Source: Thermoanaerobaculia bacterium (GTDB lineage Bacteria > Acidobacteriota > Thermoanaerobaculia > Gp7-AA8). From it: a stretch of DNA of 64,000 bases. The position numbers and the translations under genes are program-made. Within the stretch, counting starts at the first letter, position 1. Each line of letters begins with the position of its first letter. Location: positions 264,187 through 328,186 of the forward strand of contig DASQJY010000028.1 of NCBI GenBank assembly GCA_035630815.1, given 5' to 3'. This document shows, in pieces, positions 2,097 to 60,287 of this stretch. Under the pieces are notes generated by a model that saw only the letters and a list, made by a program, of their open reading frames with translations, was not told where the DNA came from and did no database searches.

Positions 2097-2282
2097 ATCG
2101 GCAATTCGCTTCCGCGTTCGAGCACATAAATTGAATGAAGTTGCTGTGAAAGGTCCTACGGCGACTGGCCGAAGTCGCAAACCGGGCCATACCAAGCTTC
2201 CGCGGGAAGAAACGGACACTTACCTGCGCGTCTGTGCGGCGGCGCTTCTTGCTCGCATTGCGGAATAATTCGTCTTCGAGGC

Positions 2283-5841: not shown

Positions 5842-5845
5842 AGCT

Positions 5846-6133
5846 CTAATCCCCGACCGATGCAGGCCTCCGCCGCCGGGCGACAGGAGATTCCGCCTGC
5901 GCAATCACACTACCCTTTCGGCATCGGATTCCTTTCAGATGAGGCACCGCTTCGGCCGGCAGGATCATCGTCCGCTCCGCCGCGATGTCACGCGGTACTC
6001 CGAACAGAGGGTGACGCCGGTCCCACATCCGCTCGAGTGCCTGCATCAATTCCGCGTCGGACGGAAATGTGATGGCTCGGAGCTGGTCGTCGGGGTACTG
6101 ATAAAGAGTCATGTGCCACAAAAGTTCATTCAT
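5846..6133 (-). CDS. hypothetical small protein
   Basis: 95-aa ORF co-directional with and tightly spaced from its neighbours. Protein-like composition (MTLYQYPDDQLRAITFPSDAELMQALERMW...). No motif. Confidence 0.35.
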   Translation of the reverse strand: MNELLWHMTLYQYPDDQLRAITFPSDAELMQALERMWDRRHPLFGVPRDIAAERTMILPAEAVPHLKGIRCRKGSVIAQAESPVARRRRPASVGD

Positions 6134-6153
6134 ACGAATGCCCCCGCAAGCCT

Positions 6154-28495: not shown

Positions 28496-28557
28496 TCTGA
28501 CCAGTAAAACACCAGCGTCAATCACGCCCCAAGCGCAGATGAACCGTAAAACCGTCC

Positions 28558-29400: not shown

Positions 29401-29411
29401 TACTTCTTCCC

Positions 29412-30875: not shown

Positions 30876-31507
30876 GCCTCCTCCCGTAAGTATGACTGCA
30901 CGCGCCTTACAAACTTATTGTCCTCTGGCACAATTTTGAAGACGAAGGACGCGATTATCGCTGAGATTCCAAAATGGAACGGCGCTGCGACAGCGACTGC
31001 GGTCAGAATTACTTTAGCGCTGCCTGGAACCATTATTACAAATATGAGCCAAAAAATTGCGAAGCCAACAAGAGTTATCCAGAGATGGCCCAAGATGAGA
31101 CGTCCCTGCGTGATCTTCTTCCTAGTTGCAAGGTCGAATACAGCTCCTGCGATAATATAAAGAGGTTTTAAAATAGTGGGTGGTCCGAGATAGGTTGTGA
31201 AGATGGCGATCGTACCCGCGACTGCATACATGCTTGCAACCGACCACCTACGTCGAACAACAACTTTGTTGAGCGTTATGAGGAGTGCTACCCACGGGCT
31301 TGCGGCGGTGATGTTCATGAGCGGGATCGGAAACGGTTCCAACGCGCTGCCACCGAGAGCCAACGCCGTCCCGAAGATGACGCTCCAAATGATGTATTGG
31401 ATTCGCCCCGGAGGAACTGCAACCGCTGCCGGCCGCTGAAGCCGCGTACGAACTCGAGATTCGGGTGTTTCAGTGCCGTTCTGGCCATGCGACATCTTCG
31501 ACTCCAT
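30872..31507 (-). CDS. polytopic membrane protein, candidate ECF substrate-capture (S) component
   Basis: ~6 predicted hydrophobic helices. 4-nt overlap with the downstream ATPase gene. The assignment rests on context only. Confidence 0.5.
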   Translation of the reverse strand: MESKMSHGQNGTETPESRVRTRLQRPAAVAVPPGRIQYIIWSVIFGTALALGGSALEPFPIPLMNITAASPWVALLITLNKVVVRRRWSVASMYAVAGTIAIFTTYLGPPTILKPLYIIAGAVFDLATRKKITQGRLILGHLWITLVGFAIFWLIFVIMVPGSAKVILTAVAVAAPFHFGISAIIASFVFKIVPEDNKFVRRVQSYLREEA

Positions 31508-31533
31508 TCGTCTTGGAAAACGGTTACAGATCG

Positions 31534-31666
31534 CTGAGTACCGCTCCTCGGAATGCTACGCCTTCACGACACATTTACGCAACACGCACTCCACGGCAGC
31601 GGCGACGAACACTGGAGATCCACCCGCGTCTCACCGTCCATTAGATTTCTTTCCGAAGGTACTCAG
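31534..31666 (-). ncRNA. candidate structured 5' leader (riboswitch-like closing stem) upstream of the ECF cassette
   Basis: On the minus strand, cugaguacc (31666-31658) pairs perfectly with gguacucag (31542-31534). It is extended by cuucgg/ccgagg and encloses ~110 nt. No known riboswitch core was recognised. Confidence 0.25.
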
Positions 31667-31668
31667 AT

Positions 31669-32370
31669 TCAGAGCGCCGATAGCGTTTCGACCGCCAACG
31701 GGAAGTCACTCAACGCAGGTACAAGCGCGTCGCGCAGAGAGTCCCGACGTCGCGCCGTCGCGGTGAGGAGCAGGATCGCGGCGGGCGCAGGTCCTATCCA
31801 TTCAGTGAGGAAGCCGATGAGTTCCAGGGTCTTGGGCACGAGTACGGTCTTCACTGACTCGCCGCCCAAATCCACCTCGATTGCTAGCGCGGCACCCGGA
31901 TCATCGGCCTGCGGCTGCCAGAGGCAAAGGAGATCCGGCCAAACGGTGAGTTTCCCCGCGAACAATCGCTGAACCATCCATGCGGGTAGTAACTCGTCCG
32001 GTGCAGGCGTGCGGCGGCGCATCGCGAGCGCCGCGTTCACGATCTCCACCGTGTGCGCGAAGTCCTTCGCCGGAACGGGGCCGCCCGCCGGGAAGAGGTC
32101 GGACGCGGGTGCGAAGCTGCCATCCCCGAGGAAGTCGCGGCCTTTCTTCGTGAGCCAGCAGACCTGGATGCCGTTGCCGTGCAGCCGCTCGACGCCGAGA
32201 TAGCCGCGCTCCGTCGAGCGGTCGAAGAAGCGGGTGACGATCGTTTCCGATACGTCAGGGAAGAGCCAGCCTTTGAGCTGCTGGCGGGTCATCATGCGGA
32301 AGCGGCCGACGAGCGCGTACGCCTCCAGATCGCGCGGGAGGATACGATGTTTCTTTGTCGTCGTCGCCAT
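31669..32370 (-). CDS. Replication-relaxation (PF13814-like) winged-helix protein, copy B
   Basis: From the ATG at 32370: MATTTKKHRILPRDLEAYALVGRFRMMTRQQLKGWLFPDVSETIVTRFFDRSTERGYLGVERL...WLTKKGRDFL. Its start shares one base with the upstream TAA stop. Confidence 0.7.
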   Translation of the reverse strand: MATTTKKHRILPRDLEAYALVGRFRMMTRQQLKGWLFPDVSETIVTRFFDRSTERGYLGVERLHGNGIQVCWLTKKGRDFLGDGSFAPASDLFPAGGPVPAKDFAHTVEIVNAALAMRRRTPAPDELLPAWMVQRLFAGKLTVWPDLLCLWQPQADDPGAALAIEVDLGGESVKTVLVPKTLELIGFLTEWIGPAPAAILLLTATARRRDSLRDALVPALSDFPLAVETLSAL

Positions 32371-38145: not shown

Positions 38146-38221
38146 TGGAGCGGGCGACGGGATTCGAACCCGCGACCAAGAGCTTGGGAAGCTCCTACTC
38201 TACCAACTGAGCTACGCCCGC
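38146..38221 (-). tRNA. tRNA-Gly (anticodon CCC), 76 nt with encoded CCA
   Basis: Minus-strand sequence GCGGGCG-TA-GCTC-AGTTGGTA-GAGT-A-GGAGC-TTCCCAA-GCTCT-TGGTC-GCGGG-TTCGAAT-CCCGT-CGCCCGC-T-CCA folds as a canonical cloverleaf. Anticodon loop TT-CCC-AA. Confidence 0.95.
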
Positions 38222-43997: not shown

Positions 43998-44408
43998 TCA
44001 GATCACAAACGGGTTCAGGATCTCGACGCCGGCATTCTCGAAATCAGTGCGGTTGCGGGTCACCACGACCAGTTCGTGGACGAGTGCCGTCGCGGCGATG
44101 AGGCTGTCCTTGATCGGCATCGCGCGGCCGGCCTTGCGAAGGGACGCGAGCAGTTCCGCCCATCGCAGCCCGGTCTCCGCGTCCCATGGCAGACAATGCA
44201 GCCGTTGGACACCGGCGTCAAACCAGCGTTCGAGGCGTGCCCGCCGGCTTCCTCGCGGCAGAAGAAGGATGCCGAAACGGACTTCGCCGAGGATGATGGG
44301 ATCGACGGCGATGTCGCGCTCGTTCTTCCTCAGCCAGTCGAGGACGCTGGAGTGCGGAGCCGGTTTCGTTGGCTCGCTCAGCACGTTCGCGTCGACGAGA
44401 TATCTCAC
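43998..44408 (-). CDS. vapC: PIN-domain toxin VapC
   Basis: A GTGA overlap with the antitoxin stop gives VRYLVDANVLSE... (first acidic residue). ...DSLIAATALVHELVVVTRNRTDF is the typical C-terminal PIN motif. Confidence 0.85.
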   Translation of the reverse strand: MRYLVDANVLSEPTKPAPHSSVLDWLRKNERDIAVDPIILGEVRFGILLLPRGSRRARLERWFDAGVQRLHCLPWDAETGLRWAELLASLRKAGRAMPIKDSLIAATALVHELVVVTRNRTDFENAGVEILNPFVI

Positions 44409-44638
44409 AGGGCGTCGGTCGACTCGGATTCGATCGGAACGAAGAACCCTTTCTCGGGACACGCGAGCAGCCAGTCGACGACGCCTTCATTGGGCGGGGG
44501 CGTTCGTCTCACGAGCCGATACTCGCCACGATCGAGACGCTCGACGGTGAACTCCTCGCCGGCCTCGATCTGATCCTGCTCGCGGAGCTCGGCGGGAAGT
44601 ACGATCTGGCCTTTCGACGATACGGTCGTCTTCATCAA
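44405..44638 (-). CDS. vapB: AbrB/SpoVT-type antitoxin VapB
   Basis: MKTTVSSKGQIVLPAELREQDQIEAGEEFTVE is a swapped-hairpin AbrB motif. Located upstream of and overlapping vapC. Confidence 0.8.
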   Translation of the reverse strand: MMKTTVSSKGQIVLPAELREQDQIEAGEEFTVERLDRGEYRLVRRTPPPNEGVVDWLLACPEKGFFVPIESESTDAL

Positions 44639-46990: not shown

Positions 46991-48787
46991 TTGTTGCCGG
47001 AGGAACGGCGCAGGCCTCTGCATACAATGCGTCGCGTGAAGTTCCTCCCGGCGGCGGTGGCGTTCGCGATCGCCTTTTTCGCCTTCGCGTTTCTCTTCCT
47101 CGCCGCGCCGGTGATCCCGGACGCCGATTCGTACTACCACCTCGCGGTGGCGCGCGAGTATGCGAGCGGCGGCTATCTCGAGGCGCTGCCGTGGGCGCGG
47201 GCGAGCGTGCTGGGCGAGACGTTCGGGGACAAGGAGTACCTGTTTCACGTGCTGCTGGCGCCGTTCGCGTCGTGGACGGACGCGGCGAGCGGCGGACGGC
47301 TGGCGCTGGCGCTGCTGAACGCGGCCTTCGTCGCAGCGATCACCGCATACGCCACGCGCGCGTTCGGGTGGTGGAGCCTGGCCGTGCCGCTGTGGCTATA
47401 CGTCGCCGCGCCGATGATGACGTTCCGGCTGATCCGGCTGCGTCCGGAGCTCGTGGCGCTGCTACTGCTCCTGGCGCTGCTGCGGCTGGCGTCGGAACGG
47501 CGATTCGCGTTCGTGGCGGCGGTGGCCGCGGTGTTCGCGTTGAGCTATACCGCGTTCCACGTCGTGGTCGGGCTGTCGTTCCTCTGGTTCTGCACGGTGT
47601 GGCGCGAGCGCGAGTGGCAGCTCCCGGCGGCGGCCGTGGCCGGGGCGGCGGCGGGGCTGCTCGTGCATCCCGGGTTCCCCGACAACCTGCGCATCTGGTG
47701 GATCCAGAACGTCGTCTATTTCCTGGAGAAAGGAAGGCTCGACGTCGGCAACGAGATCGCGCCGCCGACGGTCTCTCTCCTCCTCCTCACAAACCTCGGC
47801 TGGTGGGTCGGGCTGGCGCTGCTCTGGATGGGCGCGCGCGGTCTTCGTCCCGACCGGCGGCGCTTTCTCTTTACGTGCATCGCCGCCGGCGTCTTCGCGC
47901 TGCTGACGGTGGCGATGCAGCGGATGGCGGTGTACTTCGTGCCGCTCGCGACGCTGGCGGCGATCGTGAGGCTGGAAGCGCGTCCGGTGCGGCCGCGCGC
48001 ACGCTTTGCGCTCGCGCTCCTCGCGACGGCGGCGTTGTCGCTGCCGGCGTCCGTGAAGATCTACCGCGACCTGCTCCCCGACCAAAGATACGACCAGGGA
48101 TACGAGGCGGATTACACGGCGTTCGGCAAGGCCGTCCCCGCCGGCGCGAAGGTGGCGGCGCATTGGGGGCCGGCGGAGTTCTACACGTTCTTCGCTCCAC
48201 AAGGTCGATACCTGAACGTGCTCGATCCGGTGTTCATGGCAGTCCGGGATCCCGAGCTGTACGAGGTGCAGCGGCGGGTGTTCGATGGGACGGCGCCTGA
48301 TGTGCCGGGTGCAGTGAAGCGCGTCCTCGACAGCGACTACCTCGCGTTCGACGTCACGACACCGCTCTTCGAGCGCGTCCAGTTCGATCCGCGCGTCGTC
48401 CCGCTCTACAACGGCTACACGTTCCTCGGGCGCATCGACGCGCGGGAGATGCACCGGTTCGTGCGCGACTGGCGCGGGTACGCGTTCGCGTCCCCGTTCG
48501 AGGCGTACGTCGATGCGGCGCGTCTGTCGCGGACGCGGTGTACGCGGCTCGTGCGGGAGGAAACGCTCGCGGAGCCGGTCACGCGCATCTACGAGCTCGC
48601 GCCATTTGGTCCTGCCGAGCTGCGCATCGGCGAAGCGATCCGCGTGCGCGCGCCCGGCGTTGGGGCGATGCTCGGGAAGGGGACGCGGTTCCGGGTGCGG
48701 CTCGGTGCAGGGACGCAGCGCTTCACGGTCACGACGTGCCCTGCAGCGGGAAAGAACGGGTTTTATCTGGTGCGGCGGGATGGGTGA
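46991..48787 (+). CDS. polytopic membrane protein with C-terminal soluble domain, possible GT-C-fold glycosyltransferase
   Basis: ~12 hydrophobic helices. The first-loop motif IPDADSYYHLAVAR is reminiscent of the DxD loop of PMT/STT3-type enzymes. The function call is weak. Confidence 0.65.
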   Translation: MLPEERRRPLHTMRRVKFLPAAVAFAIAFFAFAFLFLAAPVIPDADSYYHLAVAREYASGGYLEALPWARASVLGETFGDKEYLFHVLLAPFASWTDAASGGRLALALLNAAFVAAITAYATRAFGWWSLAVPLWLYVAAPMMTFRLIRLRPELVALLLLLALLRLASERRFAFVAAVAAVFALSYTAFHVVVGLSFLWFCTVWREREWQLPAAAVAGAAAGLLVHPGFPDNLRIWWIQNVVYFLEKGRLDVGNEIAPPTVSLLLLTNLGWWVGLALLWMGARGLRPDRRRFLFTCIAAGVFALLTVAMQRMAVYFVPLATLAAIVRLEARPVRPRARFALALLATAALSLPASVKIYRDLLPDQRYDQGYEADYTAFGKAVPAGAKVAAHWGPAEFYTFFAPQGRYLNVLDPVFMAVRDPELYEVQRRVFDGTAPDVPGAVKRVLDSDYLAFDVTTPLFERVQFDPRVVPLYNGYTFLGRIDAREMHRFVRDWRGYAFASPFEAYVDAARLSRTRCTRLVREETLAEPVTRIYELAPFGPAELRIGEAIRVRAPGVGAMLGKGTRFRVRLGAGTQRFTVTTCPAAGKNGFYLVRRDG

Positions 48788-48837
48788 TTGTCGCGAAGAG
48801 CGGTGGGCGAGACGCCCACCGCTCCACAGTCCGCGAG

Positions 48838-50763
48838 TCACTTGAGGTCGATGCATTGCAATCTACGGCAGAGGATGTCGCGATAGAACTTTCTCGCCGC
48901 CGAGTGTTCCTCAGCCTCGATATACCCCTGGAGGGCAGTGCTGATCGATGCGAAAGTCATTGTTGGCTTTTGTCCGCGGAGCTTCGCGAGCTCGACGTAC
49001 GTCTTCGCGGCTGCCGCCAGCGCCACGTCGGGTCGCGCCGAGATCGTATCGACGGCATAGTCGGCGTCCGCTCCCGCAGCGCCTCCTCCTATCCCGCCAA
49101 ACAGGGCGCCGCCGATCCCACGGCCCGTATGGCCGACACGCGAGCCATAACCGAAATGCGAGTACGTGTCCTGCAGCGCATGCAGGTACGTTCCAATGTC
49201 GGACGCCTGGCCGGTAGCGACGGCGGTCGCCCTGAGGGTTGCCAGCCTCTCCGTTGAGACGAAGTGAAAATCGCGCCGGGCTTGGAAATGCGTCGGAACC
49301 GTCGGGCTTCGTTCACCGTGGTCAGGTGCCTCGGTCGCAGCCGCGATCGCGGCCGCTTCCGCGGGCGTATACCCCGCGGCGATGGCCAGGAGGTTCGTGA
49401 GATCCCGATGAAAGTCGGTGCGGTACAAGCCGGTACTGTCGTAGAAGTTCACCGGCTGGTTCAGCACGTACGAGTAACGGTTCCACGTCTGTGGCCGGAA
49501 AGGGTTCGCAGCGGCGCGGTCGATCGAGAGGAAGCGCCCCCAGTTCGGGTTGTAGAAGCGGGCGTGCATGTAATCGAGGTAGGCGCTGTGCTCTCCGCCC
49601 CAGGTCTCGATGCCGTCCCGTTCGTGGCCCGTAAAATGTGCGGTCTGTTCGCGCTCGTAGCCGCGCGCGCGTTCCTGCTGGAGGCTCGTGATCTCCACGC
49701 CGAACGGAAAGTAGTCGTGCGTCGAGATCTGGCCGCCGCCGGCGTTGGTGACCAGGCGCGGCGTCCCGAGGTGGTCCAGGTGGTAGTGGCGCCGGCCGCC
49801 CTCGGCCGTTTCGCGCTGCGACGCGATCAGGCGCTGGCCGTCGTGATAGTCGTCCTCGCGCCAGAGGAAGTAATCCAACTCGACGCTTTCGTACTCGCGC
49901 ACTTTCCGGCCGCCGAGATCCCGCAGCGTCCAGCGCCAGAGACCGCCGTCGTACCCGCTCCCGGGGATGACGGCGAGCCGTTCGTCGCCTGGCGTGTAGA
50001 CGTACGTGGAATTGGACGCGTCATCGAAGTTCATCATGCCGAGCTGGTCGTAGGCGTAGCTGCTGACAGGAGAGTCGATGAGATTGCCCGCGTCGTCGTA
50101 CGCCACGCCGAGGGAGGGGGAAAGACGGTTCGTGGAGACCTCTACCGGGAGGTTGATGGTCACGCCGTCGTTGACGAGCTTCGTGAGATTTCCTACCGGA
50201 TCGTATTCATACGATTCCTGATGGGACGCGAGGCCGCTGTAGACCTTCGCGGTGGCCAGCCTGCCGATCCGGTCGTACGTGAACTGGTCCGTCTTCCCCA
50301 GCGTGTCGGGCCCGATGGACCAGACGTTGCCGGAGCCGTCGTAGGTGTAGGTGCCGCTCGTGAGGACGTCGACGCCGTTCGTGGTCAACAACGGCATCGT
50401 GGCCTCAGCGAGCGGAGCGCGGCCCCCGGCTTCACCGGCCGCGCGGCGGGCGGCGAGACCGACCACCATCCGCTGAACGCTGCGCACTTCCGCGCGCTGG
50501 CCGAGCGCGGCCGCCGCTTCGGCGGTCATCCGGACGACGAGACGCGCGCCGCTGCGCTGCTCGACCCGGGCCCCGTAGGCGGCGGGGTCGAACGCCGGCA
50601 CGCCTTTGCGGGCCGGCTGCAGCACGATGAGATAGACGTCCTGCTGGGCGGCAAAGGCGTCGGCGGCAGGCTGCTGCGCCACGAGCGTGGACTGCGCAGC
50701 AAGGACAACGACGACTGCAAGAATGCGTGACGCCGCGTGCATGATCGAATGACGCGTTTTCAT
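48838..50763 (-). CDS. secreted RHS-repeat-associated core protein with His-rich C-terminal (putative effector) domain
   Basis: The ATG at 50763 forms an ATGA overlap. Signal MKTRHSIMHAASRILAVVVVLAAQS. YD repeats (YTYDGSGNV, FTYDRIGRL, YEYDPVGNL). Core YHLDHLGTPRLVT...THDYFPFGVEI...ARFYNPNWGRFLSIDR...NRYSYVLNQPVNFYDSTGL. ~190-aa tail with HFVS...YLHALQDTYSHFGYGSRVGH. Confidence 0.9.
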   Translation of the reverse strand: MKTRHSIMHAASRILAVVVVLAAQSTLVAQQPAADAFAAQQDVYLIVLQPARKGVPAFDPAAYGARVEQRSGARLVVRMTAEAAAALGQRAEVRSVQRMVVGLAARRAAGEAGGRAPLAEATMPLLTTNGVDVLTSGTYTYDGSGNVWSIGPDTLGKTDQFTYDRIGRLATAKVYSGLASHQESYEYDPVGNLTKLVNDGVTINLPVEVSTNRLSPSLGVAYDDAGNLIDSPVSSYAYDQLGMMNFDDASNSTYVYTPGDERLAVIPGSGYDGGLWRWTLRDLGGRKVREYESVELDYFLWREDDYHDGQRLIASQRETAEGGRRHYHLDHLGTPRLVTNAGGGQISTHDYFPFGVEITSLQQERARGYEREQTAHFTGHERDGIETWGGEHSAYLDYMHARFYNPNWGRFLSIDRAAANPFRPQTWNRYSYVLNQPVNFYDSTGLYRTDFHRDLTNLLAIAAGYTPAEAAAIAAATEAPDHGERSPTVPTHFQARRDFHFVSTERLATLRATAVATGQASDIGTYLHALQDTYSHFGYGSRVGHTGRGIGGALFGGIGGGAAGADADYAVDTISARPDVALAAAAKTYVELAKLRGQKPTMTFASISTALQGYIEAEEHSAARKFYRDILCRRLQCIDLK

Positions 50764-53700
50764 TGAGTTCTCTCCCGAAGCTGCTCGATGGGCGTGAAGC
50801 GGAACCAGATCGGGACCGGGTCCGCGTACGCCGAAACCGCGAGCTCGTGTGCCTGCAGCGCGTTGTCCATCCAGGTGCGAAGGGCCGTGATGTGGGCGGC
50901 CCGGATGAAGCCGTCCGCGGCGGGTGGCGCCGTTCCGGCCGGGAGGATCGCCGCCCAGGTCAACTCGCCCAGGCCGGCGGCGGCGCGGATTGCGTTGACA
51001 GCGGAGAGGAGCTGGTCGAAGTGCCGGTAGTCGACTCGCGTGTCCGCTCCCGCCGAAAGGTATGCGATCAGCGTGGCGAGATCGTTGTTGCTGGGGGCGG
51101 ACTGGGCGCCGATGGCGGTCAGGGCGCGGACGCGATAGACGCACGCCGAGCCCGTACCGCAGGTGCTGTCGACGTACGAAAGCGACGACGTCGTGGCCAC
51201 GGCGCTGAACGTGCCGCCATTGCGGCGCTCGAGCCGGTAATTGGCGGCGCCGGGCGTCGCGGTCCATTGAACGAAGACGCTGGACGTGCCTTGACGCGTG
51301 GCTACGAGCGACGTCGGCGGGTCGAGCGGTTGCTCGGGGGTGAGGACCGCATGGGCCGATTCGACCTTGCCGCAGTTGGACGTCACGATCACCCAGAACG
51401 ACTGCTGCGCCGTGATCGGCGGGGTCGTGAAGGAGGACGAGGTGGCACCAGGGATCAGCGACTCCTCTTCGGACGACGTCGTGCCGTACCACTGGTACGA
51501 GAACGGGCCGGTGCCGGACGCGGTCACGGTGAGGTTTTTGGTGAGTCCGTGCGTCACCGGACCGGAGGACGGGCCGGAGGTAATCGTCGGCGCGGTACAG
51601 GTGCGCGAGAAACCGCTGTATGTGATCGCCTCGGGGCGTGCCAGTCCGTCGGGATCGGGAACGACCTGCTCGAGCACTCCGTTGGCGTGCGAGGTCCAGA
51701 GCCGCAGTCCGTTGGCGGCATGGTCGAGCGTGGCGAGGGACGCGCGTGCCGTGAAGGCACCGGTGGAGGAAAAGTCGCCGGCGGTCAGGCTCCTCGGTCC
51801 CCGGTCGTCATACGCGGTGCGTGTTCCGTCGTACGGAGCCTCTCCGCATGGGACGGTCGTGCAGACGGGATAGATGTGGTCGACCGGCCGGTCGAGCGCG
51901 TCGTACGCAAAGGCCTGCTCGAATTTCTGCAGATGGATTGCCGAATCGGGATCGTCGACGTACACCTGCCTGTCGACGGACGTCTCTTTGCGCGTAACCC
52001 GGCCGGCGCCGTCGCCGTAGGTCAGCGTTTCCGCGACCTTGATCAGACCGACGGTGGGAGACGGGTTGTAGCGGACGGCGGTGCGAAGCTTGCCGAGGCC
52101 GCGGTCAGACGCCGAGAGGTTGTCCTCGTAGAGCAGCTCTTTCATCGGCCGCCAGTGGTTCGCGGTGCAGGGATCGGCTACGAGCATGTTGCGAACGTCC
52201 ATCCGGCGGAGCCGCTCGGCGGCGTCGAACGTGAAATTGGTGTCGTAACGGCAGTCGGCGGTGCGCTTCTGCCTGGCGTGCCCGCGGGCATCGTAGAAGT
52301 AGGTGATGGTGCCGTTCTCGGGATTCGTTTCGGAGGTCAGGAGTCCGGCGCCGTCGTAGACGAACGAACGGGGCGCGGCGGACGACTTGTTTACGGAAGT
52401 GAGCCGGTTGCCGGCGTCGTACTCGTACGAAGTGGTGGCGACGTTCGCGCCCTCGAAATCTTCAATGACGGAGGTGAGCCGGCCGAGGAAATCGGACGTC
52501 TCCGCGGTCTTGACCCACCCCCACGTCGTCGCGGCCAGGGCGAGCATGGACGAACGGATGGTCCGGCGCGAGCTCGGATATGCGAAGGTGAACGACGTGT
52601 CGTCGGGCTGCTGTACCTCCAGCAGCCGTCCGGTCGTGTCGTAAATCCACTTCGTCTGCTTCGTGCCGGCGGGCATGGTCTCCCGCGCGCCTGTAGCCGC
52701 GGGAACGACGACCGACACGGCCGACTTGTGACCCTTCGCGTACTCGGTCCAGGTGGCGGCCCACTCGTCGGAATCGGCCGTAGAAAGGATGCGCTGCCGC
52801 TGCTGCATCACCCGGCCGAACAGGTCGTAGTGCGCGCGCGACTCGGCCATCGCGTTGACGCTGCAATTCGTCACGCCATTGGCGCAGTGCCGCGACGTGA
52901 CGCTCGGACCGGTGGTGCCGCTCGCTTCCGTGTATACGTGCTCCGTCCAGGCGCGTCCGGCGGGCCTCACGCCTGTCAAGCGGCCGAGCTGGTCGTACTT
53001 CAGCACCGTCTCCAGGCCCGCGGTGTCGCGCGTGCTGGACGGCAACCCCGAGGGAGGATCGATGGTCGCATCGAGAGCCTTGAAATTCATGCCCTCATAG
53101 CGCGTGGAGGCCAACGAGCCATATTGATAGGTGTGGTGAATGCGGTATTGCGGCGCGACGTTGCTCAGGTTTCCACTGCACGTGGCGAACCCCGCGCCGA
53201 GCGACTGCAGGTCACCGCCGTAGTACTCTTCCTGGGATACGTTTCCGTCGGTACTGCCGCCGCTCGCGTCCTGGTCCTTGAACACGGCGAGCAGGTCGAA
53301 TTCCGAGGCCGTTGCACCGCGAAGAGCACGTCTTCGCAGTAAACGGCCGTTCAGGGGATCGAAGCAGGCCTCCGTGCGGGACCGCGACAGGACCCCGGCG
53401 GTCGCGTGGACGTCCTTCGTCTCCACGAAGTCGTAGTTTTCCGTGAGCCACGACTCGCTCGGGTCGATGATGCGCACGCCATCGCTGGCCGTGGTGGGGT
53501 TGTAGTTCGTCGTGGTCACGCGTGTGACCGGGCTGTCCGATGAGCTGGTGGTGGTGGTCCGGTAATGACCGAGACCGTCGAAACCGGAGTAAACCTCGGT
53601 CGTCTCGTTTCCGTCCTCGAAGACCGTCAACCGCGATTTGAGGCGGCGGTTGTCGTCCAGGGCGGCGGCGGTCATGTCGTATTCGTACGTGACGTACGTG

Positions 53701-55289
53701 AGCCGCTTCTTGCCGTCGGGGAGCAGCGTGCGGGTGGAGATGTACATCCCCTTGTACGGGTTCGGGTCGTCCCCTGCCTGCGCCAACCGTTGCGTGAACG
53801 GCGCGCCATAATCGCGCTCGCGCGGGTAGCCGGAGGTCCAGGTCGAGAAAAAATGCGCGGTGGACGACCCGTCCGGCGCCAGGACTGTGTTGATGGACAC
53901 GGTCTTCATGTGCTCGTAGAGCGCCGAGCCGCTGTAGGTCCAGACTTCATCCGCGGCCTCGGTGGAGCCAGCGGTCTCCGTGACGTATTTCGTCCTGCGG
54001 CCTACACCCGCCGAAAAGGTCGGCGGCTGGAACTCCTCAGGCCTGACCGGATGGTGCTCGTAGTCGGGGGGAAAGCTATAGATCCGGTACTGCCATCCGT
54101 AGCGTCCCCGCGACGGCGTTCTCACTTCGATGAGACTGCCGGTGTAACTGCCGGGATTGTGGTGCGTGAGGATGTTGCTCAGTTGGTTCGGGACGGTGGT
54201 GCTGGTGACGGTGTCGCTGCGCACGCCGGCGGCGGGGGCACTCCCCTGCTGGGTCATGCCGATGTCGTAGGCCATGTCGTAGGACGAGCCGGAGGGAAGG
54301 CTCACTTTCGTGAGCAGCGGCACGAGGACCGTGGGAGACGGAAGATCCAGCGGGTCATACGGCTCCGGCCCGTCCGTCTTCTGGCGAGAGATGACCTGGT
54401 CGGAATAGGTGAAGAGGTAGTCGGCACGCTGCGAGGCGGAGCCGAAAGCAGCCAGGCTGGCCTGGCAGACTCGTTCTTTCATGAACGCGGCGTATTCGGG
54501 GCCAGTGGGGTGCAGATAGATGTAATGGGTGCGGTGTCCGTCCGCCACCTTCCAGGTCAGATAGGAGGTTCCGCACGCATCCTGATTGGCCGCCGGGATG
54601 CCGGCGGAGTTTGCGGGGTAAGGCGTGATGGTGACGGCGTTGTTGAAGCGGTCGTAGATCTTCCGGAGCGTGCCGTCGGCGGCGAATTCCCTGATCGTGC
54701 CGTCTCCCATCTCGAGCGTGTGGCTGACGATGGCTGTACCCGATTTGTTGATGGTGTGACGCATGTACGTGCCGGTGTGGCTGTAGTTGACGTCGGAGAC
54801 GTTCAGGTTGGCCGAATGGTGCAGTTGGGGATACAAATGATGATCGCTGCCGTCAGGAGCCTGATAGACCCAGTACGGCGTCCCCAGTCGCGACTCGGTC
54901 GGTGAGACCAGCCGGCCGAGCGAGAACAACCAGCCCATGCCGGCGTTCAGCTTCCGGATCGGGACGCTCCACGTCATCCATCCCCTCTGGTATTGCTGAA
55001 AAGGGCCGTCGGCGATGCGCACTTCCCTGCTCTCGTAGTCCCAGTTGTTTCCGCCGTACACGAGCTTGAACCCGTACGACAGGTTTCCTCCGGCCACATA
55101 GGTCGGCCCGACCGGGAGCGCGACGTTCAGGTTGCCGTTGAAGAGATTGATCACGTCGACGTCGCTGACGGCATACGCCTGTTGCGGCTTGACGCCTCTC
55201 TCGTTATTGGCGTGCTGTTGTGCCGCGGTGCGGTGGGCGAGCGACGCCAGGCCGCAGAAGAGGAATGCGATGAGCCTTGCGCGGCTCAT
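50760..55289 (-). CDS. 1509-aa secreted YD-repeat protein with C-terminal Ig-like and fibronectin-III domains
   Basis: Signal MSRARLIAFLFCGLASLAHRTAAQQ. YD repeats (YDQLGRLTGV, WIYDTTGRLLEV, YEYDAGNRLTSV, FVYDGAGLLTSE, YFYDARGH). GTGPFSYQWYG Ig-like domain. PPTSLVATRQGTSSVFVQWTATPGAANYRLERR...YRVRAL FN3 domain. Confidence 0.9.
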   Translation of the reverse strand: MSRARLIAFLFCGLASLAHRTAAQQHANNERGVKPQQAYAVSDVDVINLFNGNLNVALPVGPTYVAGGNLSYGFKLVYGGNNWDYESREVRIADGPFQQYQRGWMTWSVPIRKLNAGMGWLFSLGRLVSPTESRLGTPYWVYQAPDGSDHHLYPQLHHSANLNVSDVNYSHTGTYMRHTINKSGTAIVSHTLEMGDGTIREFAADGTLRKIYDRFNNAVTITPYPANSAGIPAANQDACGTSYLTWKVADGHRTHYIYLHPTGPEYAAFMKERVCQASLAAFGSASQRADYLFTYSDQVISRQKTDGPEPYDPLDLPSPTVLVPLLTKVSLPSGSSYDMAYDIGMTQQGSAPAAGVRSDTVTSTTVPNQLSNILTHHNPGSYTGSLIEVRTPSRGRYGWQYRIYSFPPDYEHHPVRPEEFQPPTFSAGVGRRTKYVTETAGSTEAADEVWTYSGSALYEHMKTVSINTVLAPDGSSTAHFFSTWTSGYPRERDYGAPFTQRLAQAGDDPNPYKGMYISTRTLLPDGKKRLTYVTYEYDMTAAALDDNRRLKSRLTVFEDGNETTEVYSGFDGLGHYRTTTTSSSDSPVTRVTTTNYNPTTASDGVRIIDPSESWLTENYDFVETKDVHATAGVLSRSRTEACFDPLNGRLLRRRALRGATASEFDLLAVFKDQDASGGSTDGNVSQEEYYGGDLQSLGAGFATCSGNLSNVAPQYRIHHTYQYGSLASTRYEGMNFKALDATIDPPSGLPSSTRDTAGLETVLKYDQLGRLTGVRPAGRAWTEHVYTEASGTTGPSVTSRHCANGVTNCSVNAMAESRAHYDLFGRVMQQRQRILSTADSDEWAATWTEYAKGHKSAVSVVVPAATGARETMPAGTKQTKWIYDTTGRLLEVQQPDDTSFTFAYPSSRRTIRSSMLALAATTWGWVKTAETSDFLGRLTSVIEDFEGANVATTSYEYDAGNRLTSVNKSSAAPRSFVYDGAGLLTSETNPENGTITYFYDARGHARQKRTADCRYDTNFTFDAAERLRRMDVRNMLVADPCTANHWRPMKELLYEDNLSASDRGLGKLRTAVRYNPSPTVGLIKVAETLTYGDGAGRVTRKETSVDRQVYVDDPDSAIHLQKFEQAFAYDALDRPVDHIYPVCTTVPCGEAPYDGTRTAYDDRGPRSLTAGDFSSTGAFTARASLATLDHAANGLRLWTSHANGVLEQVVPDPDGLARPEAITYSGFSRTCTAPTITSGPSSGPVTHGLTKNLTVTASGTGPFSYQWYGTTSSEEESLIPGATSSSFTTPPITAQQSFWVIVTSNCGKVESAHAVLTPEQPLDPPTSLVATRQGTSSVFVQWTATPGAANYRLERRNGGTFSAVATTSSLSYVDSTCGTGSACVYRVRALTAIGAQSAPSNNDLATLIAYLSAGADTRVDYRHFDQLLSAVNAIRAAAGLGELTWAAILPAGTAPPAADGFIRAAHITALRTWMDNALQAHELAVSAYADPVPIWFRFTPIEQLRERTQ

Positions 55290-55996
55290 TCGTGCACCGC
55301 CGTTGCAGCTACATCCATGAGGTAAGGATCGACGGCGATGAGGACGTCGTGCGGACGGAAGGCGACCGGCGGCGCCGATTCACCGGAAACGGGCCGCATG
55401 AGGGCGGCGCCCGGCTGCACCGTTCCGAAAGCAACGTTGCCATCCATGCCGGAGCCGTCCATGAGCGACACCTTCCATGCGCCCTGGTCGGGACGGACCC
55501 AGATCGCCTCGACCCATTGCGCGTCGAAGTCGAAGGCGTCGAATTCCTGCCCGGAATTCCGCTTCATCCGGAGCGCCTGCGCGGGACGCACGTGCAACGG
55601 AGTGCCGGGCGGTGACGCAACCACGAAGTCGCCGCTCGAATAATCGACAGCGGCATAGATCGAGGTCGCGGCGACGGGCCGCTGCAGGTCGAGACGGGCC
55701 TCGCCGCGCTCGTCGCTCTGCAGCGTCACTGAGACGTTCATTGTGCGCATGGTGTAATTGCGCGCCTCGCGCACAATGCCGAAGACGATTACCTGCGCAC
55801 CAGGTGTAATGCCGGTAATGACGACCGCCCCCTGCTCGAATGCAATCGCAGGTGGACCGATCTGCTCCGCGGCGCGCGCGGACTGCGCGCAGAGCGCCAC
55901 CGGGATGCCGGTCAACACTGCAGTCAACACGACGCGTCCTGCAAGCCGGCGGCGATGACGAAGCCGTTCCATGATGAATCCGATTCGACCGTTCAT
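55286..55996 (-). CDS. secreted hypothetical protein
   Basis: Signal-like RVVLTAVLTGIPVALCAQSARA. 4-nt overlap with the downstream giant gene. Beta-rich composition. Confidence 0.6.
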   Translation of the reverse strand: MNGRIGFIMERLRHRRRLAGRVVLTAVLTGIPVALCAQSARAAEQIGPPAIAFEQGAVVITGITPGAQVIVFGIVREARNYTMRTMNVSVTLQSDERGEARLDLQRPVAATSIYAAVDYSSGDFVVASPPGTPLHVRPAQALRMKRNSGQEFDAFDFDAQWVEAIWVRPDQGAWKVSLMDGSGMDGNVAFGTVQPGAALMRPVSGESAPPVAFRPHDVLIAVDPYLMDVAATAVHE

Positions 55997-56011: not shown

Positions 56012-58015
56012 CTACTGCATCGACAGCAGGACCAGGATCTCGCCCACGCCGCCCTGTAATGGCTCGAGCGCCTTGCCGATGATCGTGCCGGGCTGATGGA
56101 ACTCGCGGCCGTTGATCTGCATCGGCTCGGAGCGCATGGCCGTGCCGGAAATGTCGCTGGTCACGAGCAGGTCGCCGACACGAACGGCATGGACGCGGGC
56201 GTCTACACGGACTTTGACGCGGCCGGTGGTGGCGATCTGCTCTTTTTCGGCGCCTTCGACGCCGAGGAGGATTCCGGGAGAGGCGGAAACGACGCCGGCG
56301 ACCGTCGTGTCGTACTGGCGGGACGACGGCATGACCTCGTTGTTCCGGTCGCGGTTCAGCACCACCACGGTTCCGGCGGCCATGTCGACCGTGGCCGGGA
56401 CCCATTCGGCGAGATCCTGGTAGACCGCACCGATCACCTTCGCGCCGGTGATGTTTCCGGTGGCGATGATGTTGCCGGTGGTGGTGAGGTTGCCGGTGGC
56501 GGTGATGTTCCCCGTGGTCAGGAGGTTCCCGACCACGTGCAGTTTCGCGGAGGGGGTGGCGGTGCCGATGCCGATGTCGCCCGTCTGCGTCACGCGAAGG
56601 CGCTCGTTGGCCGGACCGGTGCCGCCTGTGTACATCCGGACGTTGCCGGTGGTGACGTTGCCGGAGCTCAGCGAAAGGCCACCGGTCTCCAATGAGGTCA
56701 GGGCAACCGTTCCGGCGGCGTGCGCGGAATTCGGCTGGTTCGTATACGTGGCGCCGGTTGCGGTCAGCGAGCCGCCGGTCCCTACGGCGCCGGAGTTGAG
56801 GATGAAGGACGTGTACGACGCCGGATTGGTGTTCTGCATCGCGATGTTGCCGAGCACGTGCAGCTTCTGCTGCGGGGTGGTGGTGCCGATGCCGATGGTG
56901 CCCGAAAAGAAGTTCGTGTCGTCGGGGCCGTTCTGATAGATGCCGAAGTCATTGATTGCTTCGGCGTCGGCGATGTACACGCCATAGCCGGTATTGACGG
57001 TGCCGCCACCCGACTCGACCGCGGCGTGAACCGCGGTCGCCGTGGTCACGGTGCCGGGGAAGCCGTAGTAGTTGCCGGCGTGGAAGTACCCGCCGGTGGC
57101 CCAGGTCACTGTGCCCGGTCCGTAGTTCCACGCGTCCATCTGGCCGGCGATGAGGCCGCCGGTGTTCGTCACGCCGAGGGGAACGGTGTTGACGGCGTTG
57201 ACGAACAGCCCCGCATCGTCCTGCCTGATGGTCGCGTCCACCACAGCGTGCTGGTAGACGAACATCGCCCGTCCGTTGTCGGAGTAATTGTAGGTGGAGA
57301 GCTTGCCGTGATTGCTCGTCGCGCCGATGCTGACGTTTCCGTCGGCGAGAATGCGCATGCGCTCGGCGGAGCTCGTACCGAAGATCATCGGCCCGCTGGC
57401 GAAGTTCCAGAGCTGGAGCGCGTTCGCCCCGCCCGTCGCTCCGGTGGAGGCGGAACCGGTGCTGGAGAGCTTCGCCACCTGTGTTCCGCCCGCGAAGAAG
57501 CGCACCTGCCGCGACGCCTCGGCGGTGGCCGTCCCGGCGTTGGCGTTGTTGATCTCGATCCCGGTCGCGGCGTCCTGGTCGCGGCGCAGGATCGTGTAGC
57601 CGTCGCCACGGACCTTGAACAGCGCGGCGTCGCTCGCGCTCAGGACGGTGAAGCCGGACGCAGACGTCTGCGTGCCGAGCTTCAGGAAGACATCCGGAGT
57701 GGCGGTGGCGGCTCGCAGGAGCACACCCGAAGCGGGTGCGGTGGCATTGTCGAGCAGGAGGTCGCCGTGATTGCCGGTGACGTCGGCCTGCGCGCCCACT
57801 GCCGACGGCCGGTTGCGGCCGGACTGCAGCACTTTCAATGGACGATCGCCCTGCGGCACCTCCGGCGCCGCGGCTGGCTCCTCGGCCTCTTCGCGCCCTG
57901 GCATTTCGATCACCGGGATCGGCGGAGGCGCGGAGGGATCGACCACGGGATCCTGGGCCAGGAGTACGGGAGCGGCAAGGCAAAGTGCGACCAGTGCGAC
58001 ACGAAATGTCGGCAT
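56012..58015 (-). CDS. secreted tail-fibre-like repeat protein
   Basis: The ATG at 58015 (AAGGA upstream) gives signal MPTFRVALVALCLAAPVLLAQ. Repeated IGTTTPQQKLHVLGNI / IGTATPSAKLHVVGNL motifs. Pentameric TGN repeats (TTGNITATGNLTTTGNIIATGNITG). C-terminal DLAEWVP...GDLLVTS...IIGKALEPL domain. Confidence 0.75.
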   Translation of the reverse strand: MPTFRVALVALCLAAPVLLAQDPVVDPSAPPPIPVIEMPGREEAEEPAAAPEVPQGDRPLKVLQSGRNRPSAVGAQADVTGNHGDLLLDNATAPASGVLLRAATATPDVFLKLGTQTSASGFTVLSASDAALFKVRGDGYTILRRDQDAATGIEINNANAGTATAEASRQVRFFAGGTQVAKLSSTGSASTGATGGANALQLWNFASGPMIFGTSSAERMRILADGNVSIGATSNHGKLSTYNYSDNGRAMFVYQHAVVDATIRQDDAGLFVNAVNTVPLGVTNTGGLIAGQMDAWNYGPGTVTWATGGYFHAGNYYGFPGTVTTATAVHAAVESGGGTVNTGYGVYIADAEAINDFGIYQNGPDDTNFFSGTIGIGTTTPQQKLHVLGNIAMQNTNPASYTSFILNSGAVGTGGSLTATGATYTNQPNSAHAAGTVALTSLETGGLSLSSGNVTTGNVRMYTGGTGPANERLRVTQTGDIGIGTATPSAKLHVVGNLLTTGNITATGNLTTTGNIIATGNITGAKVIGAVYQDLAEWVPATVDMAAGTVVVLNRDRNNEVMPSSRQYDTTVAGVVSASPGILLGVEGAEKEQIATTGRVKVRVDARVHAVRVGDLLVTSDISGTAMRSEPMQINGREFHQPGTIIGKALEPLQGGVGEILVLLSMQ

Positions 58016-58113: not shown

Positions 58114-59256
58114 TCAGAAACGAGCGGCGTATTGCCATGCGCTCTTTGCGAGCGCGGACGCGGAGGTGCCGGGATGCGCTTCGGCAAACGCGGCGAGCCG
58201 CCGCGCACCCTCGTCGAAGAGCCCTTCACGCATGCAGATCAGCCCCTGTTCGAGGTCGGAGCCGGAGCGGCGCGCTGCCTGGAGCTCCGCCAGCGCCTCC
58301 GCGGTCAACAACCGGAATCGCGCCGGCGGATCGGTCTCCGGCGGCAGCACTTTCTCGCCCGACCCGGAGCGGAGAACCACCTGCCACTGGTACGTCACGC
58401 CGCGTTTCAGGGCGGTGGGGCTGGTCCAGGCGGTCCCCTTCAACGCGGGGCTCTCCAGCACGCGGTTGTAGCGGCTGTCGAATACCTGCACCACGCCCAT
58501 CTGCGTGCTGTCGTCACGGGACCAGCGGAATGCCGGCCGGTCCGCCTCGAGCACGACACCCACGGGGCCGAGCAGCGCGGCGGTGCCCGGCGCGACCGCC
58601 CCCGCCGATCGCTGACCGCCCGCTGTCCCCTGGAGCGAAGCGACGAGATTCGCGCTGGCGAGCGTGCCGCGCTGGAGCGCCGTCGCCACCCGGCGCAGCG
58701 ACGGTGGGAGTTGCTCCAGGGGATTGCGATCGGACGCCGTGGCAGGAGCGGGTGCGAGTGCGGGTGGACTGTCTCGCGGAAGCGGCACAGTGGCCGGAGC
58801 ACGACGGACGGATTCGACGCCGCGATGCGGCTCCGGTTCAGGCGATGCGGTGTTCCAGACGAGTGCGGCACCTCCGGCGACAAAGGCCGCGATCGCGGCC
58901 GCGATGGCGAAGCCGCGGAAGCGGGCACGAACGGCGACGACACGCACGGCTTGCCCGAGATCCGCGGCCTCGGCACGGCACATCGCGCAGACTTCCAGAT
59001 GGTCGCCAGCCGCCGTTCGTTCGTCCGCGTCGCCGAGACCGTCCACGTATGCCGAGAGCTCTTCGAACGAAAGGTGGTCGCCGTCCAGCGTTTCCAGTGC
59101 CTGCCTCACCGCGACGCGGGCCATGGCGGAGTCGGCGACCGTGCGGCGGCACGAGTTGCAGCGGCCGAGGTGGTCGTCGGTCGCCAGCAGCTCCTGCCCT
59201 GAGAGCTTGCCGAGCCTGAAGCGCTCGAGGAGCCCGGCGTCGGGGTGATTCGTCAT
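58114..59256 (-). CDS. membrane-spanning anti-sigma factor with two zf-HC2-like motifs
   Basis: HLGRCNSCRR and HLEVCAMCRAEAADL. TM FAIAAAIAAFVAGGAALVW. ~220-aa extracytoplasmic domain. 4-nt overlap with the sigma gene. Confidence 0.7.
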   Translation of the reverse strand: MTNHPDAGLLERFRLGKLSGQELLATDDHLGRCNSCRRTVADSAMARVAVRQALETLDGDHLSFEELSAYVDGLGDADERTAAGDHLEVCAMCRAEAADLGQAVRVVAVRARFRGFAIAAAIAAFVAGGAALVWNTASPEPEPHRGVESVRRAPATVPLPRDSPPALAPAPATASDRNPLEQLPPSLRRVATALQRGTLASANLVASLQGTAGGQRSAGAVAPGTAALLGPVGVVLEADRPAFRWSRDDSTQMGVVQVFDSRYNRVLESPALKGTAWTSPTALKRGVTYQWQVVLRSGSGEKVLPPETDPPARFRLLTAEALAELQAARRSGSDLEQGLICMREGLFDEGARRLAAFAEAHPGTSASALAKSAWQYAARF

Positions 59257-60287
59257 TTCGACCTTCCGTAATCCGGCACGCGTGTCTTCCGCAGGAGCCG
59301 CGACCGGGCGGCCCGCCTGAGATTGATGACCTGTTGTCTCGTCACTCCAAGCCGCGCGGCGATGAAGAGGTCGTCCGCGGGAAGGCGGGGCCAGATGAAC
59401 GCGAATTCGTCGTCGCTCATCTCCAGCGCGCGCGCGATGTCGCGGACCGTCGCGACGGCGGCGACGGGGAGGAGGTGAGTGACCGACTCACCGGCGGAAT
59501 CGCGAGCCTGCAGCAGCAGCGCAACTCGCTGGCGAAGCGGCAGTTCCAGGATCTCGTTCCACAACCTGCGCAGGTCCTGGAGCTGGATCAGCTCCTCGGC
59601 CGGATGGGTGACGGCCGAGCTGAGCTCGACCGCCTCGTCGAGCGACTGCGGGGTCTCCTTGCGCGGAATCCCGGCCGCGGCCGCAAGCACCGTGACCACG
59701 TCTTCGACGGTTCGCGGCGCACCGGCGGCGGTCAGTAGGGAACGAAGGTCGGGACGGAGATCGCCGCGCCCTCCGCCGAAGGCGAGCGGCGGCATCGGTG
59801 AGTGCTCATCTTGAGGATTGTCCTTCCACGCCGCAAGTCCACAGACCATCACGCCGCGGTAGGTCCAGACGGCCAGGGCGGGATCGTGATTCAGGAAGTA
59901 GAGCGTCCGGTTCCTCAGCTTCGCGCGGAGCGGAAAGTGCTTGCGGACAAAATCCTCGAACGCGTTGAAGGTAACGGTCGCAACGTAGTCGGGGAAGCTC
60001 TCGATCGGCGGGTCGTCGATCCCGAGCAGGCGGCGGAAGCGGCTCACGAGCCGGACGATGACGTCGTGCCGCAGGTCGGCGACGTACTCGACATCCATGC
60101 GTGCCCTCCTGAAGCGCGCCGACAGGATCTTTTCGATCCGGTCGTATGCATGCTCGGCCAGGATCGCCGCGACCGCGGCCTCACGCTCGGTGTCGGACCG
60201 CGCAGTCAGGACGCGGTCGAGCATCGGATCATTCAGCCGCCTTTCCGCCCTCGGGTCCAACGACTGCTCCTTCTGCAGAGAGAACAC
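59253..60287 (-). CDS. ECF-like sigma-70-family factor, atypically long (up to 344 aa; the listed start is GTG and may be further downstream)
   Basis: Region-2-like ADLRHDVIVRLV...YVATVTFNAFEDFVRKHFP. Region-4-like ILELPLRQRVALLLQ ... IAARLGVTRQQVINLRRAARSRL. Long inserts lie between and within the regions. Confidence 0.65.
   Translation of the reverse strand: MFSLQKEQSLDPRAERRLNDPMLDRVLTARSDTEREAAVAAILAEHAYDRIEKILSARFRRARMDVEYVADLRHDVIVRLVSRFRRLLGIDDPPIESFPDYVATVTFNAFEDFVRKHFPLRAKLRNRTLYFLNHDPALAVWTYRGVMVCGLAAWKDNPQDEHSPMPPLAFGGGRGDLRPDLRSLLTAAGAPRTVEDVVTVLAAAAGIPRKETPQSLDEAVELSSAVTHPAEELIQLQDLRRLWNEILELPLRQRVALLLQARDSAGESVTHLLPVAAVATVRDIARALEMSDDEFAFIWPRLPADDLFIAARLGVTRQQVINLRRAARSRLLRKTRVPDYGRSK

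Follow-up and report, generated by a model that had tools for sequence, protein, structure and literature searches.

RHS and Tc cocoons have been studied as natural protein-delivery capsules, and to our knowledge cytoplasmic folding applies to all characterised cocoons, whether they consist of a single chain or of a TcB/TcC pair. In the TcB-TcC cocoons, for example TcdB2-TccC3 and YenB-YenC2, two polypeptides make up one YD/RHS shell, and the smaller chain bears the RHS core protease together with a variable C-terminal toxin. TcC contributes roughly 680 residues of the shell, and we know of no Sec leaders on the Tc subunits. Single-chain RHS toxins with a signal peptide, on the other hand, combine a Sec leader, a YD shell, an RHS core, a cleavage motif and an exchangeable C-terminal toxin, and they have a downstream immunity gene. 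These WapA-like proteins constitute the 'T2SS' (type II secretion system) class of PMC3482391. Here we analysed a 64,000-nucleotide (nt) stretch of contig DASQJY010000028.1 from a Thermoanaerobaculia bacterium (hereafter the window, with a G+C content of ~65%), in which two overlapping genes, A and B, encode a YD-repeat protein and an RHS core protein, respectively. Our reading as a whole is that the gene for one RHS toxin cocoon has been split and that A and B are the halves of this cocoon, and we give it a probability of about 0.6. The two genes have the following features:

50760-55289, minus strand: gene A, YD-repeat protein of 1509 residues (open reading frame (ORF) list and translation)
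55221-55289, minus strand: signal-peptide-like N terminus of A, residues 1-23, ...LAHRTAA/QQ (read from the sequence)
51621-55220, minus strand: residues 24-1223 of A, predicted N-terminal ~four-fifths of the RHS/YD shell (AlphaFold2 (AF2) model, Foldseek and alignment)
51369-51593, minus strand: residues 1233-1307 of A, Ig-like (Pfam Ig_7, E-value 1.9e-4, weak and below the Pfam cut-off)
51087-51353, minus strand: residues 1313-1401 of A, FN3-like (phmmer match to FN3con, PDB 4u3h, E-value 6.7e-4)
50763-51062, minus strand: residues 1410-1509 of A, presumably helical C-terminal tail with conservation among split-class A proteins
50760-50763, minus strand: ATGA overlap of the A stop and the B start, with GGAGAG 6 nt upstream of the B start
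48838-50763, minus strand: gene B, 641 residues (ORF list and translation)
50677-50763, minus strand: signal-peptide-like leader of B, residues 1-29, ...STLVA/QQ (read from the sequence)
50389-50667, minus strand: residues 33-125 of B, small N-terminal domain
49426-50367, minus strand: residues 133-446 of B, predicted last ~one-fifth of the shell and RHS core (TIGR03696 and alignment)
48841-49425, minus strand: residues 447-641 of B, putative DUF6765 toxin domain (Pfam DUF6765, 29.7 bits against a cut-off of 26.6)

The initial annotation had described A as a YD-repeat protein ending in Ig-like and FN3 domains, translationally coupled to a second protein with its own signal peptide, further YD repeats, an RHS core and a tail, and each of these elements was recovered in our analysis. 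The third-position GC of the B frame is of the coding type only downstream of 50763, which is why a longer, 884-residue ORF for B was rejected. AF2 predicted residues 25-1224 of A to be all-beta (predicted local distance difference test (pLDDT) of 82.5 and predicted TM-score (pTM) of 0.81), and a Foldseek search with this model retrieved RhsA (7q97, E-value 1.8e-29), TcdB2-TccC3 (query TM-score (TMq) of 0.45-0.53), Tse5 and teneurins. RHS_repeat and YD_repeat_2x matches were found at residues 957-1004. The homologues of A share its leader, and the domains at its C-terminal end recur among them, with precomputed Ig_7/Ig_3 matches, PF00041 in the homologue P0005, and a C-terminal tail that is conserved with P0003-P0012 and L008_190. 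In B, which also gave RHS_repeat and YD_repeat_2x matches, YD motifs occupy residues 139-230 and Rhs_assc_core (TIGR03696) covers residues 351-446 with 52 bits (cut-off 32.5). D383 (in HERD) and D415 (in LSID) are the candidates for the protease dyad of B, which we take to be equivalent to D651/D674 of TccC3. A cleavage motif of the PxxxxDPxGL type, NQPVNFYDSTGL, lies at residues 435-446 and is followed by the 195-residue tail, and B is predicted from its sequence to be cleaved after L446. The small N-terminal domain at residues 33-125 of B is common to the loci L003 and L008 only and matched no family.

A homology search with A identified ~30 full-length relatives, which BLASTP sorted into two classes. 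In the 15 split-class homologues, the shell is followed by the Ig/FN3/tail region, and the RHS core motif was found in none of them. In the 10 single-chain RHS relatives, residues 24-1223 of A and residues 133-445 of B align to adjacent segments. For instance, these two parts correspond to residues 32-1131 and 1139-1439 of the single-chain protein P0015, leaving seven residues between them. P0015, P0019 and others are thus fused members of the same family as the window system. Nothing in the fused relatives corresponds to the last 286 residues of A or to the first 132 residues of B with their signal peptide. From the adjacent alignment, the split form would therefore be a single-chain RHS protein with an insert of ~420 residues at one turn of the shell, which comprises the last 286 residues of A, a stop and a start, and the first 132 residues of B with the signal peptide. 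B contributes the last ~230 shell residues plus the RHS core. It is solidly supported by these sequence comparisons that A and B represent two halves of one RHS shell encoded by a split gene.

Separate A-like and B-like genes are kept in at least seven related loci. The loci L003, L006 and L007 have the same 4-nt A/B overlap as the window and L078 has a 1-nt overlap, and in L008 the end of an A-like gene precedes a B-like gene whose tail is the same as in the window. The order is reversed in L079 (6001-13689), where a B-like gene with the DUF6765 tail is separated by 9 nt from a gene for an A-like giant of 3151 residues with repeated Ig domains. All seven B-like proteins that were read begin with signal-peptide-like leaders. 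The B-like proteins of L006, L007 and L078 have residues 133-446 in common (36-42% identity) and unrelated tails, and their genes are followed by small ORFs of 105, 359 and 110 residues, respectively. As judged from these sequences, the system is polymorphic, with a conserved scaffold and exchangeable C-terminal toxins. A third type of break was observed in L076 (6001-10837), in which a 1359-residue shell protein gene overlaps by 20 nt with a 258-residue ORF. This ORF starts within the RHS core (MKFTGHERD...) and has its own toxin tip, and it could be explained by a frameshift, by pseudogene formation or by a further split point.

These data bear on two simpler accounts of the locus. According to the first, A and B are one gene broken by a frameshift in sequencing or assembly, as might also be the case for the overlapping core and toxin ORF of L076, a possible artefact. 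For the window, this account is effectively refuted: the 369-kb soil-metagenome contig that the region matches was also assembled independently and the A and B proteins are identical in the two assemblies, distant homologues among the conserved loci show the same overlap arrangement, and the ~420 residues around the junction are without counterpart in the fused relatives. The doubt raised by the initial annotation whether the two ORFs are one frameshifted gene was thereby settled in favour of two genes. According to the second account, B is a displaced C-terminal RHS cassette, orphaned when a toxin tip was replaced, and A an independent YD-repeat adhesin, and the two proteins do not assemble. 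C-terminal displacement is known at rhs loci (PMC2935791), and A ends in domains of the adhesion type. However, orphans normally come after a complete rhs gene and its immunity gene, and no split-class A protein contains an RHS core. B also starts from a ribosome-binding site and a start codon of its own, opens with its own signal peptide and is coupled to A in translation, the pair is maintained across the related loci even with a reversed order in one of them, and the A-B boundary maps to adjacent residues of the single-chain relatives. We thus consider the displaced cassette quite improbable and retain the split shell as the explanation for A and B.

The window system resembles the TcB-TcC cocoons in that two polypeptides would form one YD/RHS shell, which is here deduced from co-linearity, in that the smaller chain bears the RHS core protease and the variable C-terminal toxin, and in the superposition of the A model on TcdB2-TccC3. 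Unlike in TcB-TcC, no Pfam match to SpvB, to the TcdB mid-N or mid-C domains or to a beta-propeller was found in A, the gene calls for 10 kb to either side of the window locus include no TcA gene, and both chains carry Sec leaders. The break is also located much closer to the C terminus, so that B has ~310 shell residues. As the system is most closely related to single-chain RHS proteins of the Sec type, its split was probably an event separate from that in TcB-TcC. Compared with these single-chain toxins, the shell in the window is divided between two genes, the break being occupied by the Ig-FN3-tail module and a further signal peptide, and the system is without the downstream immunity gene. 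The split, Sec-exported shell is a conserved variant of a known RHS weapon and not a new type of system. In our literature search, a gene-split Sec-type RHS was described nowhere and DUF6765 was mentioned nowhere.

The tail scanned alone passed the Pfam cut-off for DUF6765, with only profile positions 3-58 of 325 aligned, and all 26 diverse tail relatives matched the same family, for which NCBIfam holds no name. An exhaustive search of representatives identified 301 relatives of the tail; a word-indexed protein search gave one relative with the tail alone and two with a 26-sequence tail profile. The domain is not peculiar to this scaffold, a point for which the initial annotation had proposed a search of other scaffolds, as DUF6765 is present on more than 100 RHS protein clusters. 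A genome scan revealed 65 loci with the tail domain, most of them from Acidobacteriota and others from Planctomycetota, Verrucomicrobiota, Oxalobacteraceae and further groups. DUF6765 is a domain widespread in soil Acidobacteriota and other phyla that has no assigned function.

Where the start of the domain could be located (131 hits), it directly followed the RHS DPxG site in 103 cases and a signal peptide in at least 10, and the first residue of the domain was Tyr in 124 and Trp in three. In the window, too, the tail domain starts exactly at the predicted autoproteolysis site, so that Y447 would be the new N terminus. Such a conserved first residue at a proteolytic site offers a simple testable idea of how the toxin is switched on. 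Numbered from Y447, the residues H6, D35, H54 (followed by F55), H82, D86, H90 and D126 of the tail are each retained by 116-118 of 118 sequences, and 100 of them retain H99. The conserved His/Asp residues are all present in B of the window, namely H452, D481, H500, H528, D532, H536, H545 and D572, which makes the non-toxic function considered by the initial annotation unlikely. In the tail of L079, H99 is replaced by Gln and Q85 by Ala. AF2 predicted the tail to be an all-alpha domain of ten helices (pLDDT 89, pTM 0.86), and the confidence was lower in one segment:

49105-49170, minus strand: Gly-rich hydrophobic insertion GRGIGGALFGGIGGGAAG..., residues 547-568 of B, glycine-zipper-like (model pLDDT 65-68)

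This insertion and its equivalents in P0074 and L008 resemble glycine-zipper segments and could indicate that the tail mainly inserts into membranes or forms pores, with the His/Asp set having a structural role. We regard this as very unlikely because the insertion occurs only in the closest subfamily (~95-107 of the 118 sequences are gapped across those columns), whereas the His/Asp pattern is conserved throughout the family and argues for catalysis or metal binding.

The initial annotation had compared the tail with the His clusters of zinc-dependent phospholipase C (PLC) and P1 nuclease. We compared 26 diverse members of the tail family with 24,736 Pfam families at E-values up to 10. Besides DUF6765, the only recurrent matches were VWA7_N (10 of 26, best E-value 0.001) and Zn_dep_PLPC (2 of 26, best E-value 0.12), all other matches being singletons. 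The recurrent matches are situated on the HxxxDxxxH motif or run co-linearly across D35-H90. The HxxxDxxxH motif is part of the Tox-HET-C signature, and Het-C has been proposed to be a relative of PLC and the S1-P1 nucleases, with nuclease or phospholipase activity left open (PMC3482391). The tail resembles the Tox-HET-C/Het-C/VWA7_N, PLC and S1-P1 families in its predicted all-alpha structure, in HxxxDxxxH with further His and Asp/Glu residues, and in the use as a toxin tip. It differs from Tox-HET-C in that its Pfam family is DUF6765, that the cross-family scores are sub-threshold and that fold and profile-profile tests were negative; moreover, the tail family does not conserve the HxD element that belongs to the Tox-HET-C signature. 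PLC and P1 nuclease start with an aromatic residue that is made N-terminal by processing. Y1, H6, D35, H54, H82, D86, H90, H99 and D126 of the tail fit what we take to be the nine metal ligands of B. cereus PLC and P1 nuclease, whose sequences we confirmed to be exact while the ligand numbers are assumed, by order only. The spacing differs, with HxxxDxxxH in the tail versus HxxxDxxxxxH at the presumed ligands of PLC/P1.

A toxin of this kind would be expected next to an immunity gene in the single-chain systems, and the initial annotation had pointed out that there is no room for one after B. We found the same arrangement:

48798-48824, strand not applicable: hairpin GAGCGGTGGGCG-AGA-CGCCCACCGCTC, formed by two perfectly complementary 12-bp arms and a 3-nt loop (read from the sequence)
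47027-48787, plus strand: convergent gene for a polytopic membrane protein of 586 residues (third-position GC frame analysis and gene call)

The gap of 50 nt between the B stop and the convergent gene (48788-48837) contains the hairpin and no ORF. The hairpin is likely to be a bidirectional terminator; a consensus scan detected no T-run terminator in it. The convergent gene is outside the system, and its product matched no family in the Pfam, NCBIfam and PHROG scans. An antisense ORF at 47462-48856 was considered as an immunity gene and discarded, its frame being a third-position GC shadow of the convergent gene. By tblastn and hidden Markov model (HMM) searches, no homologue of the candidate immunity proteins of relatives was found in the 64-kb window of the 369-kb contig.

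The lack of an immunity gene is not a property of the family, as we learned from the downstream regions of the relatives (loci L011-L075). A same-strand ORF of at least 50 residues near the stop of the tail-bearing gene was identified in 62 of the 65 genome loci, and 29 of these 62 carry one of three recurrent downstream families as defined by clustering and HMMs. The first family consists of proteins of 100-167 residues with multiple transmembrane (TM) segments and a GHG motif (BLAST places them at 10 loci and HMM at 14). The second comprises secreted right-handed beta-helix proteins of ~335 residues (Pfam Beta_helix) in eight betaproteobacterial loci, mostly from Oxalobacteraceae, and the third ~140-residue proteins with a leader in seven loci. 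Pfam holds no family for the first or the third. All three are membrane or secreted proteins, and if they confer immunity, the toxin would therefore act on the envelope and not in the cytoplasm. These candidate immunity families could serve as handles on the target of the toxin. Closer to the window system, the next ORF downstream encodes a 128-residue protein with four TM segments in L008, which has the closest B-like relative (56% tail identity), and a 138-residue protein with four TM segments in L011. The locus of the B-like protein P0073 runs directly into a convergent CHAT/TPR gene and L079 into the A-like giant. Hence, of the four close relatives that were examined, which all belong to the subfamily with the Gly-rich insertion, two are without an adjacent candidate. 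The absence of an immunity gene is real and recurs in close relatives, and it is not a rule of the family.

Three explanations may account for this absence. Encapsulation and export may protect the producer or immunity may be encoded elsewhere in the genome, which we hold to be the most probable causes, or the target may be non-bacterial. In the last case, the toxin would be directed at a fungus or another eukaryote and no immunity gene would be needed, which is in line with the absence of immunity homologues across the window and of adjacent small ORFs in half of the closest relatives. PMC3482391 gives no immunity family for Tox-HET-C either, and cites Pseudomonas Het-C as being needed for infecting the hyphae of fungi. 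However, nearly half of the loci with a downstream ORF carry the recurrent families, the closest B-like relative is followed by the four-TM ORF, and the immunity search covered only 64 kb of the 369-kb contig. We therefore rate a eukaryotic target as rather unlikely, and keep to the target's envelope as the preferred site of action.

In the mechanism that we propose for the split cocoon, A supplies ~1200 shell residues and B the last ~230 together with the RHS core and its self-cleaving aspartyl protease, the break being filled by the Ig-FN3-tail module that ends A and the second signal peptide that opens B. Both chains would be exported unfolded via Sec and would assemble in the periplasm or at the surface around the 195-residue C-terminal domain of B. 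The RHS core would cut after Leu446 and free the toxin with Tyr447 as its first residue. The freed DUF6765 toxin may be a metal-dependent hydrolase of the Het-C/zinc phospholipase C type, as its motifs and the weak Pfam matches suggest, and the new N-terminal Tyr447 may help to bind metal like Trp1 of the zinc phospholipase C type enzymes. It would then act on the cell envelope of the target. There is solid support for the split architecture; how the halves assemble, that cleavage activates the toxin and what enzymatic activity it has are inferences. If both halves are indeed Sec-exported, a cocoon can form after export, and such post-export assembly would bear on how cargo is enclosed and on the engineering of capsules.

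Several observations weigh against this mechanism. The assembly of A with B is deduced from co-linearity alone, and the mechanism would require two Sec-exported halves to enclose the cargo and the complex to cross the outer membrane. Among the ORFs located downstream, many from high-GC contigs are singletons that could be spurious. For the enzymatic part, the VWA7_N and Zn_dep_PLPC matches are all below the Pfam cut-offs, and VWA7_N is identified as the animal Het-C domain by our reading of PMC3482391 only. In the Foldseek search with the tail model, the best PDB match had an E-value of 1.3 and nothing in PDB and BFVD together fell below 0.9; alpha-toxin chains ranked 9 and 34 in PDB with a TMq of only 0.31-0.33. 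Comparison of the tail family with single sequences of B. cereus PLC or P1 nuclease by hhalign resulted in probabilities of 0.2-1.6%, and with profiles of three P1 and of 52 S1/P1 sequences, the latter built from a metagenome scan, in ~0.4% (0.35% for the 52-sequence profile). A profile search of PDB sequences with the tail alignment A1 returned RHS cores only, since some rows had kept upstream residues. Of the proposed PLC/P1 likeness, the His/Asp-rich all-alpha character and the recurrent Pfam matches therefore stood, and the fold and profile-profile tests did not reach significance. We keep a Het-C/PLC-like metal-dependent hydrolase as the preferred working hypothesis for the tail, at roughly even odds, and do not assign the domain to that superfamily.

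Within the metal-dependent alternatives, the tail could also be an S1/P1-type nuclease acting on nucleic acids instead of a hydrolase of lipids or the envelope. The spacing from Tyr1 to His6 equals that of Trp1 to His6 in P1 nuclease, and PMC3482391 leaves both activities open for Het-C. This alternative is unlikely in view of the hhalign result for the S1/P1 profile and the weak Pfam matches, which are to Zn_dep_PLPC and not to S1-P1_nuclease; furthermore, the membrane and secreted candidate immunity proteins would not fit a cytoplasmic target. A stronger version of the envelope hydrolase is that RHS self-cleavage is chemically required, with the free amino group of Tyr447 completing a multi-metal site and the protease acting as a zymogen activator, in combination with extracytoplasmic assembly of the two halves. 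We consider this version tentative and somewhat doubtful. In the literature searched, neither zymogen-type activation nor two-half assembly after export was described for RHS systems.

A and B are the last genes of a minus-strand cluster, which was delineated from third-position GC and the ORF list and begins with four genes upstream of A:

59253-60260, minus strand: ECF-type (extracytoplasmic function) sigma-70 factor of 335 residues, first of the cluster (TIGR02937, E-value 2.3e-8 and 33.8 bits, which falls short of the curated cut-off, 42.9)
58114-59256, minus strand: anti-sigma factor of 380 residues with a zf-HC2 motif (uniformly weak matches to Pfam zf-HC2 and to anti-sigma models of NCBIfam)
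56012-58015, minus strand: secreted fibre-like protein of 667 residues, or 708 residues from an upstream ATG (PHROG tail fibre, E-value 1.5e-6; 8OND, E-value 2e-9)
55286-55996, minus strand: secreted accessory protein of 236 residues, whose stop overlaps the A start by 4 nt

The 236-residue protein and the fibre-like protein would be accessory parts in the proposed mechanism, with roles in assembly or targeting. In each of the six further loci with a recovered upstream flank, a homologue of the 236-residue protein is encoded immediately 5' of the shell gene (E-values of 6e-16 to 3e-50). These loci are of the split and the fused kind alike, including the fused or differently broken L077 and L076. 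The protein was tried as a tail-specific immunity protein and rejected: it accompanies shells with different tails, and it is therefore more consistent with a scaffold partner. It had no match in Pfam, PHROG or PDB.

The fibre-like protein resembles phage tail fibres in PHROG and the Bdellovibrio fibre proteins bd2133 (8OND), 8OML and 8OL4. It was found in three of the six cassettes examined, and its homologues L007_486 (E-value 2e-60) and L078_821 (E-value 1e-57) are located at the same position. The C-terminal domain of ~165 residues also occurs in L007 and in L078, with 62% identity over the last 167 residues in the latter. As a reasonable guess and nothing more, the fibre-like protein could be a component for targeting, target recognition or adhesion. 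In L003 (1899-4631), the closest homologous locus, a 910-residue S8 peptidase is found where the fibre gene would be, and residues 634-843 of this peptidase resemble the Ig/FN3 region of A (E-value 4e-13).

The genes for the sigma and anti-sigma factors share 4 nt, and the pair probably controls the expression of the cluster. Just past this pair, the window encodes a CHAT/TPR protein. A CHAT/TPR gene also adjoins the gene for P0073, which has the same tail, on an unrelated contig. Further away in the window, a pair of a MazE-like antitoxin and a PIN-domain toxin was recognised at 43998-44638 on the minus strand from gene calls and Pfam matches, and a tRNA gene is located at 38149-38221 on the minus strand. 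The G+C content is lower at 2001-8000 and 28001-32000 (0.55-0.59 versus ~0.65-0.69 elsewhere), which possibly marks acquired DNA.

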